Shown here: one piece after another, positions 2,900-9,673 of the stretch | Layout of the letters: the number at the start of each line of letters is the position of its first letter | How positions within the stretch are numbered: the first letter of the stretch is position 1 | From: a virus | Reading direction: 5' to 3' (one strand) | Length of the DNA: 15,862 nucleotides | UHGV virus genome: UHGV-0076425 | The notes under the pieces: generated by a model | The model's input: only the letters and a program-made list of their open reading frames with translations | What the model was told of the DNA's origin: nothing | The model's database searches: none | Program-made: the position numbers and the translations under genes

Positions 2900-3411
2900 G
2901 CCGCGTTTCCTTCTTTCTTATTAACAATCACACCGTCATATATTTCATTAAGGTGCCCTCTCAACTCCATGCGCCTTAATGCAGATAACATGTAATCGCA
3001 TTCAACCTGCTTATTCCCAGTAAATGGCTTATCGTCAGGATTACCCCAACAGCAATTACCCCTGGGCCATCCATGTACTTTCCGTACTCTTCCGTTAACA
3101 ACGTGAAGTAATCCCCAGCCGGGAGGTAAATCCTCAACTGAAATAATTTCCGGCTCACTAATAAAGAATCGCCAGTCGCCCATGCCAAGTGAGGGATTTT
3201 TACGGAAACGCTTTTTTCTATCTGCCAACAAGTCAGCACGAGAACACTTCGCCTCTATCAGGCATGATGCTGAATTTCTGAATCCCATAGCATCTGGCTG
3301 TTCTCCGGTACTGGTTACAGCAACAAAGCGGTCATAAAAGCAAACCTTGAACCCGTTGCGCTTAAGGAACTTGTACGCAATCTGACAGAGTTCGTGGTGT
3401 GTTAACGCCAT
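2896..3411 (-). CDS. Putative PD-(D/E)xK-type nuclease-like protein
   Basis: Track ORF 2896..3444; the ATG at 3411 is preferred because AAGGAGAG lies 6 nt upstream. Motif PD-x15-IEAK fits the PD-(D/E)xK catalytic signature; Cys/Trp-rich C-terminal segment. Confidence 0.5.
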   Translation of the reverse strand: MALTHHELCQIAYKFLKRNGFKVCFYDRFVAVTSTGEQPDAMGFRNSASCLIEAKCSRADLLADRKKRFRKNPSLGMGDWRFFISEPEIISVEDLPPGWGLLHVVNGRVRKVHGWPRGNCCWGNPDDKPFTGNKQVECDYMLSALRRMELRGHLNEIYDGVIVNKKEGNAA

Positions 3412-6961: not shown

Positions 6962-7636
6962 TTAGGCCTTTATTGTGTATCTTCTTGGTTTTCCCGAGAA
7001 AATCACTGTACCAATTATAGAGCAATTACCGTTAATCTTAATGTAAGGCTCAGGCCAGTTTGGGTTTAATGCTTTGAGATAACGCTGTGTTCCATCTTCT
7101 ATCAATCGCTTGAAGGTGGTTTCGCCTGTATCGTGCATCAATGCAATAACGTCGTCACCGTGGCAGGCAGGGACTTCGGGATCAACAAAAATCATGTCTC
7201 CAGGGCGGTACTCATCAATCATTGAATCACCAATCACCCGCAAGATATAAGTCATTTCGCCACAGGGTACAGGGCAGGGATACGTTTCTGCTGTGCTCAA
7301 ATCAACCTCAGAATAGCCAACTTCTTTCCATGCTCCGGCCTGTACCCATGATATGACAGGGACTAACGTTATTTGTTTGTTAGTGATTGAAACATCAGGT
7401 TTTTTTGTGATGTTCGTTGTCTGGTGTTCTTGATCAAGCCATCCGACAGGCAGGTCGAAACATTTTTCGATGTGCCGTGCCATGCTGTCACCGATATTTT
7501 TAGTAGCGCCATCCCCCATAAACCTGCTGGTTTGGGTTGGCTCGCGATCAATCATGGTGGCAAAGGATGAATTTCCGCCAACACCATCTCTCAGTTTTCT
7601 GGCGTTAGACCGCCGGATGTCATGGATTGTTTTCAT
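6962..7636 (-). CDS. cI: CI-like prophage repressor with C-terminal S24 (LexA-type) autopeptidase domain
   Basis: 224 aa; C-terminal GDSM (Ser nucleophile) and a downstream Lys; candidate RecA-stimulated cleavage site VQAG-AW paralleling lambda CI VQAG-MF; divergent from the cro-like gene. Confidence 0.9.
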   Translation of the reverse strand: MKTIHDIRRSNARKLRDGVGGNSSFATMIDREPTQTSRFMGDGATKNIGDSMARHIEKCFDLPVGWLDQEHQTTNITKKPDVSITNKQITLVPVISWVQAGAWKEVGYSEVDLSTAETYPCPVPCGEMTYILRVIGDSMIDEYRPGDMIFVDPEVPACHGDDVIALMHDTGETTFKRLIEDGTQRYLKALNPNWPEPYIKINGNCSIIGTVIFSGKPRRYTIKA

Positions 7637-7958: not shown

Positions 7959-8528
7959 ATGAGGCTAACCGTGGGTAAGTATCACTGGAAAGTAGAAAAA
8001 CAGCCTGAGTGGTACGTGAAAGCTGTCAGAAAAACTATCGCAGCGTTGCCGGGTGGTTACGCTGAAGCAGCTGACTGGCTGGATGTAACAGAAAACGCAT
8101 TATTTAACCGCCTTCGTGCCGATGGCGATCAGATTTTCCCGCTGGGATGGGCAATGATTTTGCAACGTGCTGGTGGAACTCACTTCATTGCTGACGCTGT
8201 GGCGCAGTCTGCAAATGGCGTCTTTGTGTCTCTTCCTGACGTCGAGGATGTGGACAACGCCGATATTAACCAGCGTCTGCTGGAAGTCATTGAACAGATC
8301 GGCAGTTATTCCAGACAGATTCGTTCAGCAATCGAAGACGGTGTAGTGGAACCGCATGAGAAGACAGCAATTAACGACGAGCTGTACCTCTCAATTTCGA
8401 AGCTCCAGGAGCATGCAGCACTGGTCTACAAAATCTTCTGCGCTCCAGAAAATAGTAACGCCCGCGAGTGTGCAGCTCCGGGCGTCGTGGCGTCGATTGC
8501 TTCTGGTTGTGGAGAAACTAACGCATGA
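7959..8528 (+). CDS. CII-like regulator (YdaT family) candidate
   Basis: 189 aa ORF second in the rightward operon; family assignment from position and memory only; alternative GTG start at 7971 has a better GAGG Shine-Dalgarno. Confidence 0.45.
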   Translation: MRLTVGKYHWKVEKQPEWYVKAVRKTIAALPGGYAEAADWLDVTENALFNRLRADGDQIFPLGWAMILQRAGGTHFIADAVAQSANGVFVSLPDVEDVDNADINQRLLEVIEQIGSYSRQIRSAIEDGVVEPHEKTAINDELYLSISKLQEHAALVYKIFCAPENSNARECAAPGVVASIASGCGETNA

Positions 8529-9673
8529 ATAGTTTAACGGCAAATAACCGTTTGTCGCAACAGCTGGTGGTCAGCGTCGCTGAACACCTGTTGTTACGGC
8601 ATGAATGCAGATTACCAAATCACCTGGCTGTAAGTAACCACAGAGAACTTTACCTGACTGTGGGGGGCGAGTTGTGCAGGAACTTAACCGCTGGTTTCGT
8701 GACGGAAGAGGACTTTATGTTCATGTTATTCGTTGGGAGCCAGAAACACAGCGCGTTATCTATCTTCGCAAAGACTACCAGCATGAGTGCTTTAGTCCTT
8801 TGTGGAAATTCAGGCGTGATTTTGTTGAGTGTGAAGGACCACCAGCACATTGATTCTGCCATTCCGGGACGTTACACTGTTCAGGCACCTTATAAAGCGG
8901 GTGTCGGGATTGGCGTCCTGGAATTGCATACGGCGACAATTGGCGCGTTAGCGTCTTTTTTGTTGCTACAACTCAGCTATACCCAAATTATGGTGGGCTG
9001 GGTGGGGGCACCGAAAGGTGCGCCGGTTTCCGTATGCGCCGGTTACGCCAACCCTGCTCAGTTCACCACCAGCGAAATTGGCGTTTCCGGTGGTGGAAGT
9101 TATCCATTGCATACGGAGGCTGCCATCATGGCTACGATCCCAACCCTCACTCAACCTGAAATTGCCATCGTTGATGGTCAGGCTGTTACTTCATCCCTGG
9201 CTGTTGCCAACTTCTTCTCCAAACGTCATGACGATGTACTGAAAAAGATCCGCACGCTTGAATGTTCCGCATCATTCACTGCCCGCAATTTTTCGGTGAG
9301 TGATTACACCGATTGCACAGGCCGCAAACTACCTTGCTATCAAATAACCCGCGACGGCTTTGCGTTTCTTGCTATGGGTTTCACGGGTAAACGTGCTGCC
9401 CAGTTCAAAGAGGCATACATCAATGCCTTTAACCAGATGGAAAAACTGCTTTCAAAGCCATCCACGCTGAGCGATGCCGCAGATAACGCCAGCGTGCTTT
9501 ACTCCCACCTGTCGGTAATCCACAAGGTCTGGCTGCAGCAGCTTTATCCCATGTTGGCAAAAGCCGAATCCCCGCTGGCTGTAAGTCTGTATGACCGCAT
9601 CAACGACGCGGCGCTACTGGCCAGTCTCATAAATTTGTCGCTGAACCCTTCAGAGGTAAGGGGGCGCAAATGA
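8525..9673 (+). CDS. Rha-family phage regulatory protein; true start uncertain (alternative ATG at 9128)
   Basis: Rha-domain signature (VTSSLAVANFFSKRHDDVLKKIRTL...) lies at residues ~205-300 of the 382-aa ORF; Rha domains are normally N-terminal, so the ATG at 9128 (GGAGG 8 nt upstream) may be the real start. The upstream 600 nt are stop-free in this frame and the ATG at 8525 overlaps the preceding stop (ATGA). Confidence 0.55.
   Translation: MNSLTANNRLSQQLVVSVAEHLLLRHECRLPNHLAVSNHRELYLTVGGELCRNLTAGFVTEEDFMFMLFVGSQKHSALSIFAKTTSMSALVLCGNSGVILLSVKDHQHIDSAIPGRYTVQAPYKAGVGIGVLELHTATIGALASFLLLQLSYTQIMVGWVGAPKGAPVSVCAGYANPAQFTTSEIGVSGGGSYPLHTEAAIMATIPTLTQPEIAIVDGQAVTSSLAVANFFSKRHDDVLKKIRTLECSASFTARNFSVSDYTDCTGRKLPCYQITRDGFAFLAMGFTGKRAAQFKEAYINAFNQMEKLLSKPSTLSDAADNASVLYSHLSVIHKVWLQQLYPMLAKAESPLAVSLYDRINDAALLASLINLSLNPSEVRGRK

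Follow-up and report, generated by a model that had tools for sequence, protein, structure and literature searches.

Three described systems place a gene under the control of an antisense RNA of the C4 family: the immI region of phages P1 and P7 (c4-icd-ant), the nested eta/kil genes of phage P4 and the isrK-orf45-anrP locus of Gifsy-1. Here we compare with them a locus in the UHGV virus genome UHGV-0076425, of which a stretch of 15,862 nucleotides was analysed (one strand, 5' to 3'; hereafter the window). The locus is an open reading frame (ORF) of 382 amino acids (aa) at 8525..9673, on the plus strand like all features below unless stated, which contains a Rha-family domain. Judged from its sequence, it belongs to a known kind of system, a P4/P1/Gifsy-1-type cassette in which the RNAs IsrK and C4 control a Rha-type regulator, here lying inside a maintained long ORF. 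We consider it probable that the segment preceding the Rha domain forms the 5' portion of a carrier frame of the Eta type in a lambdoid early-right operon, with a small DUF4222 gene and an RNA immunity cassette embedded in it.

In P1 and P7, C4 is an antisense RNA whose elements a' and b' face duplicated target sets placed before and after it, and it serves to control an antirepressor; the details of the c4 antisense RNA were reportedly worked out by Citron and Schuster in 1990. The heteroimmune specificity types of these phages arise by co-variation. In P1/P7 as well as in P4, C4 has to be excised from a longer transcript by RNase P.

For P4, the passages of PMC10111431 that deal with this system, citing Forti et al. 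1999, describe a promoter that is constitutive and lies within eta, and Kil as the nested short form. The same passages state that full-length Eta is translated only from an upstream late promoter, coupled to the upstream gene, and, again with reference to Forti et al. 1999, that termination is prevented when Eta is translated. The logic given there is that RNA pairing blocks expression, while translation of the long form from the upstream promoter overrides the block (PMC10111431).

In Gifsy-1, IsrK has its own promoter and a leaky terminator and is followed by a C4-like element, STnc1160 (Hershko-Shalev et al. 2016, PMC4825925). A Rha-like antirepressor forms the payload, and IsrK supplied in trans raised anrP translation 140-fold (PMC4825925). 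The RNA immunity pair has already been recorded in some lambdoid prophages (Barquist et al. 2013).

An IsrK-C4 cassette upstream of Rha

The sequence-only reading of the window had pointed out that the Rha signature comes late in the 382-aa ORF and that the preceding 600 nucleotides (nt) are free of stops in its frame. Both observations are correct: the Pfam Rha domain occupies residues 222-307, and 8525-9127 contains no stop, for which the random expectation is (61/64)^200, about 7e-5. What that reading overlooked is that RNA genes fill 8850-9127.

The first of them is the small RNA IsrK, seqA in P4 (8885..8961), matched by Rfam RF01394 with 58.9 bits against a gathering score of 50. It folds into three hairpins, the last an intrinsic terminator whose stem (8942-8955) is followed by a run of six T (8956-8961), as found by a terminator scan and by folding. 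Within it lie the elements b1 (UUGGCG, 8910-8915) and a1 (UGCAUACGG, 8925-8933), and a sub-threshold match to the Rfam family c4-a1b1 overlaps its start.

The second is a C4-family antisense RNA, CI in P4 (8986..9073), matched by Rfam RF01695 (clan CL00128) with 80.7 bits against a gathering score of 45 and over the full model (positions 1-87 of 87). The minimum-free-energy fold of 8986-9073 agrees with the Rfam C4 structure (z = -3.9). It comprises a 17-base-pair stem, a loop that holds a' (UUUCCGUAUGCG, 9027-9038) and the single-stranded b' (CGCCAA, 9046-9051); in the sequence and the fold, ACCACCA can be seen to come after the long stem. By homology, the pair is the RNA immunity system known in P4 as seqA/CI. 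The homologous long ORF carries the annotation 'immunity region' in SfV and phage Ayreon.

A candidate promoter, PisrK, precedes IsrK at 8850..8878 and is the putative counterpart of P4 PLE. Its -35 element (TTGATT, 8850-8855) overlaps the stop codon of the DUF4222 gene, and after a 17-nt spacer its -10 element (TACACT, 8873-8878) ends 6 nt before 8885, where the predicted start site G8885 lies. It is placed relative to the isrK 5' end in the same way as Gifsy-1 PisrK (TTGACA-17-CTATAT) and the matching region of P4. In close relatives it is 97-100% conserved, and it marks the 5' edge of the mosaic cassette described below.

C4 pairing and the nested Rha start

A second set of C4 targets, seqC in P4, lies downstream of C4 at 9078..9119 and consists of b2 (UUGGCG, 9078-9083) and a2 (UGCAUACGGAGG, 9108-9119). 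The exposed elements of C4 are complementary to the targets on both sides: loop a' pairs with a2 over 12 nt and with a1 over 9 nt, and b' pairs with both b1 and b2. The element a2 contains a Shine-Dalgarno sequence, GGAGG (9115-9119), 8 nt before an in-frame ATG at 9128, which is residue 202 of the 382-aa ORF.

To follow these elements among relatives, 155 related loci were collected from viral contigs and reduced to 65 distinct cassettes. In them a loop of the form UUUCC+N7 pairs with N7'+GGAGG at the start of the payload over 11-12 nt and with a1 over 8-9 nt. The loop heptamer, a1 and a2 co-vary through at least seven specificity types (GTATGCG, TTGATCA/G, GATAACG, AATGTTG, AATAAGG, TTGAAGG and GTAGGTA), and the pairing is kept throughout. 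This three-way co-variation directly supports, by comparison of relatives, an action of C4 on the ribosome-binding site that serves ATG 9128, and it shows that 9128 is a genuine start. The b1:b' helix is supported experimentally in a relative, since the compensatory pairs by which IsrK:mRNA pairing was verified in Gifsy-1 (G28/C162 and G31/C159) map exactly onto b1 UUGGCG : b' CGCCAA.

The short form that begins at 9128 (9128..9673, 181 aa) is a Rha-family regulator or antirepressor. Pfam PF09669 (Phage_pRha) matches its residues 21-106 with an E value of 5e-31 and 105.9-107.5 bits (threshold 29.9), TIGR02681 matches with 101 bits (threshold 45.95), and its PHROG matches belong to Rha and anti-repressor families. 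The comparisons identify this 181-aa protein as a payload nested in the long ORF, with C4 directed at its translation start, and its role is likely that of an antirepressor.

Identity profiles show that the region from about 8850 to 9150 also occurs with unrelated upstream DNA (in the relatives L104, L119, L106, L097 and L144). Different payloads, one of them itself of the Rha family, start about 25 nt past the ATG, and homology to such relatives ends near 9152. By these profiles, the cassette is a mosaic unit. The payload ATG is in frame with the open frame in 53 of the 65 variants.

In two viral contigs, L090 and L190, a 1-nt difference shifts the open frame off the usual payload ATG; there the frame (from the C4 core to about +1216) continues for 495-520 codons and resembles, by eye, a tyrosine recombinase. 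Another arrangement was seen in Symbiopectobacterium purcellii (L221), which carries tandem IsrK-C4 cassettes (2206-2400 and 3152-3353), the second directly after the first long Ash-Rha ORF. In Escherichia coli MS7163, to which the window is most closely related, there is also a second Rha-family pseudogene, placed immediately behind the first.

Comparison with P4, P1 and Gifsy-1

The likeness to P4, as seen in the sequence, extends to the order of elements, with PLE, seqA, the CI RNA and seqC all placed inside nested eta/kil. P4 eta starts on the stop codon of orf88 (GCATGATGATG), just as ATG 8525 starts on the stop of ymfL. It spans an IsrK-like leader and a C4-family CI RNA, both with Rfam matches in P4; in the window, too, the candidate promoter, IsrK and C4 lie inside a maintained open frame. 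The kil start inside eta shares 21 nt (GGAGGCTGCCATCATGGCTAC) identically with window 9115-9135. The window differs from P4 in its host element, a lambdoid prophage, in its upstream partner, which is the CII-like ymfL rather than an alpA/orf88 homolog, and in its payload, a Rha domain instead of Kil. Moreover, its ORF reaches much further upstream of the promoter (about 110 codons) and holds a DUF4222 gene in another frame.

With P1/P7 immI the locus shares the C4 antisense RNA with its a' and b' elements, the duplicated target sets, specificity types that come about through co-variation, and the control of a putative antirepressor. It differs in that the payload belongs to Phage_pRha and not to the Ant family, and in that C4 targets the Shine-Dalgarno sequence of the payload itself and not that of an icd-like gene; the ORF listing contains no separate icd-like ORF between C4 and the payload.

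Gifsy-1 is similar in having IsrK with a terminator and with a promoter, of which the window has a candidate counterpart, then a C4-like element, an AUG at about +106/+107 of isrK and a Rha-like payload. The corresponding AUG in the window (8990..8992, position +106 of isrK) was recognized by its position and frame, and the Met codon is kept in all enterobacterial variants examined. Whereas Gifsy-1 orf45 is a separate upstream ORF of 45 codons that ends on the anrP AUG (AUGA), the frame of AUG 8990 in the window is the Rha frame and runs into Rha without a stop. The Gifsy-1 locus also lies elsewhere, after gene Q, and not in the immunity region.

Selection on the long frame

The long ORF, which we regard as an Eta-like long form on the grounds of the ORF listing, stop avoidance and codon usage, begins at the very end of ymfL. 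Its ATG overlaps the ymfL stop (TGA, 8526-8528) in an ATGA at 8525-8528, and a Shine-Dalgarno-like GGAG, read from the sequence, lies 10 nt upstream (8511..8514). The overlap recurs in most ymfL-context relatives from other genera, and the junction 'gGAGAnAcyAACGCATGAACAGTTTA' is kept in L004, L210, L212, L213, L216, L218 and L219. One of these, L218, is a contig labelled Vagococcus sp. WN89Y, a Gram-positive, yet it carries a typical enterobacterial ymfL/ymfM/DUF4222 prophage segment; the label is probably a result of contamination or mislabelling.

The first 49 codons (8525..8673) are protein-coding. Within the window's group their ratio of nonsynonymous to synonymous differences (pN/pS) is 0.43-0.65, and for e14-like pairs it is 0.22-0.56; the other frames mostly lie at about 1 or above. 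Aligned with the N-termini of ORFs that occupy the ymfM position in other lambdoid prophages, the encoded peptides form a single family. A profile search of PHROGs with the 49-aa N-terminus alone gave no match, and as a structured RNA 8525-8673 is not significant (fold z-score -1.2). In each sub-segment the long frame has the best codon usage, a rank that it shares with the DUF4222 frame in 8674-8853.

The closest counterpart of this N-terminal part is ymfM of the e14 element of E. coli K-12, which starts at the same ATGA overlap with ymfL. Its first codons (MNSLT) are those of the window, and where it runs across a DUF4222 gene, placed in an equivalent relative frame, it too avoids stops. It differs in that it ends after 112 codons with no IsrK-C4-Rha cassette following, and its N-terminus is only distantly similar to that of the window.

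Across 60 distinct enterobacterial variants, 8885-9127 shows 0 distinct stop sites in the long frame against 18 and 16 in the other two, of which 12 and 10 lie upstream of AUG 8990 and 6 and 6 downstream. Insertions in the spacer of this region measure 39 or 45 nt. Across the DUF4222 gene, the long frame has no stop in 12 lambdoid-context lineages, where shuffles of synonymous codons would lead one to expect 2.0-2.95 (P 0.01-0.055 each); for two DUF4222 paralogs from P4-like contexts, where there is no overlap, the counts are 3 and 5. The same architecture of N-terminus, DUF4222 in another frame, IsrK, C4 and in-frame Rha is found in Citrobacter (L210, 383 aa) and in Symbiopectobacterium (L221, 393 aa), the latter with a DUF4222 only 44% identical. 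The amino acid sequence behaves differently in the RNA region: the pN/pS of the long frame in 8885-9127 is 0.93-0.94, no lower than in the off-frames, and the entropy there shows no codon periodicity. By these measures the frame is kept open in this part, but the peptide that it encodes is not under selection.

We also considered the long ORF as a pure artefact of RNA conservation. This was dropped in view of the counts of stop sites, the insertions that keep the frame, the shuffles across DUF4222 and the precedent of P4 eta.

A broader alternative, which we regard as unlikely, is that function is confined to the two RNAs, DUF4222 and the 181-aa Rha and that the 382-aa frame is never translated. 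Its openness would then stem from RNA conservation, from exchange of cassettes with P4-like satellites, in which eta matters, and from shared ancestry. Several observations speak for it. In 8885-9127 the pN/pS is no lower than in the other frames and the entropy is flat. In Gifsy-1 a TGA two codons upstream of the orf45 AUG closes the frame that is open from 8525 in the window, so the cassette can work without a long ORF. In 12 of the 65 cassette variants the payload ATG is out of frame with the open frame. The relatives were found through an exact pattern of the C4 core, and phylogenetically they are not independent. Further points count against the carrier reading itself. In the window's own group the coding signal of the first 49 codons is modest, with substitutions against L004 falling 7/10/11 by codon position, and one off-frame of this part also reaches a pN/pS of 0.37-0.49. 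Finally, a promoter consensus scan of 8300-9400 called nothing and the candidate PisrK matches the consensus at only 8 of 12 positions, so that the internal promoter is argued from position and homology. An untranslated frame does not easily account for the rest of the record, however. Stops are absent even from the hypervariable spacer and its insertions, where the other frames gain them, and synonymous sites of DUF4222 avoid them in the lambdoid lineages and not in the P4-context paralogs. The first 49 codons have a pN/pS below 1, the coupling ATGA and its Shine-Dalgarno sequence are conserved, and the architecture persists at the DUF4222 divergence seen in Symbiopectobacterium.

The Ash match

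The model Pfam PF10554 (Phage_ASH) matches residues 117-212 of the long ORF above threshold, which corresponds to nt 8873-9160 and coincides with the RNA locus at 8885-9073; no NCBIfam model matched this piece. Phage_ASH was examined as a protein domain selected for its amino acid sequence, and the stretch was found to evolve in the long frame just as in the off-frames and to lie over RNA genes. The 'Ash' match is thus better read, from its position and its substitution pattern, as a conceptual translation of RNA genes inside the carrier ORF than as a protein domain.

The family has a similar relation to P4. In the phage P4 sequence (L208; 8168-8584 and 7888-8175, both on the minus strand) PF10554 matches the obsolete 'cI protein' ORF, which lies over the CI RNA, and not the ε derepression protein (PF25738). 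A published scheme for the detection of P4 satellites used PF10554 as an ε/Ash marker (PMC8628076). According to the match positions, this marker in fact detects the RNA immunity locus.

The sequence-only reading had counted a genuine two-domain Rha protein among its possibilities. In its full form, with a folded N-terminal 'Ash' domain fused to Rha and 8525 as the only real start, we consider this very improbable. The above-threshold match, more than 1000 database proteins with the full extension and a literature that speaks of Rha/Ash domain proteins are in its favour; thousands of database entries carry the same extension, and RefSeq uses the name 'ash family protein'. On the other side stand the coincidence of the match with the RNA locus, the origin of the P4 member in an ORF over the CI RNA and the lack of amino acid selection in the stretch. 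The internal ATG 9128 with its GGAGG is conserved as a co-varying C4 target and identical to the P4 kil start, and payloads are swapped immediately after it. What holds of the long-protein idea is that the frame is kept open by selection and that its start is coupled to ymfL; 8885-9127, with its pN/pS of 0.93, is not a folded second domain.

The DUF4222 gene and the G run

The 59-aa ORF with a GTG start at 8674..8853, which the sequence-only reading had described as a possible separate small gene with its own promoter, is a real gene of the DUF4222 family, nested in the +2 frame counted from the 8525 frame. Pfam PF13973 matches it with an E value of 1.1e-13 (51 bits, threshold 27) and phrog_1343 over its full length with an E value of 4e-36; no NCBIfam model matched this piece. 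Its frame has a pN/pS of 0.07-0.26, the other frames about 0.9 or higher, and substitutions relative to Salmonella-type relatives fall 3/4/13-16 by codon position. The check proposed in the sequence-only reading came out both ways: the homologs keep the 382-aa frame continuous, an outcome that it had named as a refutation, and they conserve the small ORF, whose lack of conservation it had named as another.

An ATG-initiated ORF of 70 aa lies antisense to DUF4222 (8650-8862, minus strand), and a similar antisense ORF of 83 aa is present in L004; it is probably a shadow of the coding strand. In e14 (L209), 1626-1984 corresponds to window 8525-8853, and there ymfM, a 112-aa product described as the division inhibitor SfiC, shares its DNA with a 59-aa DUF4222 gene in another frame; strong purifying selection acts in the DUF4222 frame. 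The published ymfM clone would hold all but the last few DUF4222 codons. If the carrier reading is true, the filamentation ascribed to e14 ymfM (SfiC) could stem either from the ymfM frame or from the nested DUF4222 product.

A run of six G (8662..8667) ends 6 nt before the GTG. We read it as the Shine-Dalgarno sequence of the DUF4222 gene, because it occupies the position that a GGAGG-like motif has in homologs. Among the DUF4222 homologs examined, nearly all begin at an ATG, GTG or TTG of their own, and in most of them such a motif is present and a G run is not. The run contains six G in 95 loci and five in 14; the two forms differ by substitution, the surrounding alignment shows no change of length, and both ORFs are intact in all of these loci.

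Among the possibilities named in the sequence-only reading is a programmed -1 shift by which the 8525 frame would be joined to DUF4222 in a 109-aa protein, at the heptamer G GGG GGC (8662-8668); to this explanation we attach hardly any credence. The heptamer is indeed present and in the correct phase (codons GTG GGG GGC in the 8525 frame), the arithmetic is right in that a join to the 8674 frame would give 48 + 61 residues, and the upstream 49 codons and DUF4222 are both under purifying selection. The comparison of relatives, on the other hand, leads us to reject it. In the inspected relatives with five G, a TAA or TGA interrupts the DUF4222 frame after the run and ahead of the GTG, nearly all homologs examined start on their own codons, and the zero frame stays open for hundreds more codons under selection. 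A conserved slippery heptamer with an open -1 frame was looked for; the heptamer was seen in the window only, the frame is stopped in the inspected five-G relatives, and e14-like homologs have no run at all.

Equally scant is the likelihood that one ancestral gene was broken by an indel in the G tract, or that the tract is a sequencing error: homopolymers are prone to indels and the two frames do meet at the run, but its two lengths differ by substitution with both ORFs intact in every locus, and e14-like homologs without any G run keep the same two-frame arrangement.

Proposed mode of action

On the reading that we favour, in which the segment is part of an Eta-type carrier, the locus may work as follows. 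In a lysogen, the main repressor would shut the early promoter while the internal promoter would still make IsrK and, through read-through and processing, C4. C4 would pair with the ribosome-binding site of Rha and turn Rha off, and the downstream genes would probably be off too because they are translationally coupled. IsrK could compete for C4, because it carries the same target sequences.

During induction or infection, transcripts would come from upstream, and ribosomes that finish ymfL could restart at ATG 8525. From there they would cross the promoter, the terminator, both RNA genes and the blocked ribosome-binding site. Such translation across the cassette would override the RNA block, yield the 382-aa long form and keep the downstream coupled genes expressed.

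Our confidence that the 382-aa frame is indeed a translated carrier ORF of this kind is evenly balanced. As such it would act as a switch that overrides RNA immunity in a lambdoid phage and would give a long Rha isoform with an N-terminus like that of ymfM-position ORFs.

Surroundings and annotation of the locus

The part of the window around the cassette is the early-right region of a lambdoid prophage, as judged from the ORF listing, Pfam matches and annotated RefSeq relatives. A LexA-like repressor (6962-7636, minus strand) is followed in the listed order by a cro-like gene and then by ymfL (7959..8528), a CII/CP76-family regulator (Pfam Phage_CP76, E value 8e-14) whose RefSeq homologs bear the name ymfL. 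Small coupled ORFs and replication genes lie downstream of the 382-aa ORF. The stop of the long ORF overlaps the next ATG (ATGA at 9670), and the ORFs that follow (9891 region) abut or overlap too, so that the operon from ymfL on looks like a chain of translationally coupled genes.

Of 5426 complete E. coli genomes, 2940 match 8400-9300 in some part, and in 969 of these most of the stretch is present. Annotations vary between 'ash family protein', 'peptidase', an N-terminally extended Rha and DUF4222 as a pseudogene, and the annotated records inspected contain no RNA features. In E. coli MS7163 (L005, 1775-2774), which is 99.6% identical, RefSeq marks DUF4222 as an incomplete pseudogene and, apparently so as to keep the overlap small, lets Rha begin at an internal Met, which is residue 67 of the long ORF (window 8723).

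Implications

Recognition of the cassette corrects a widespread and inconsistent annotation of a very common locus. If the carrier reading is true, the same DNA would hold four layers, namely the long ORF, DUF4222 in another frame, the two RNAs and the nested short Rha, and the ymfM-position ORFs of e14-like prophages would be truncated versions of the carrier.

Many lambdoid and Shiga toxin (Stx) prophages probably have, as a second layer of immunity, an RNA system that controls a likely antirepressor and comes in several specificity types, which bears on prophage induction and on superinfection exclusion. The open long frame suggests that lambdoid phages, too, may use translation to override RNA immunity in the manner of P4.

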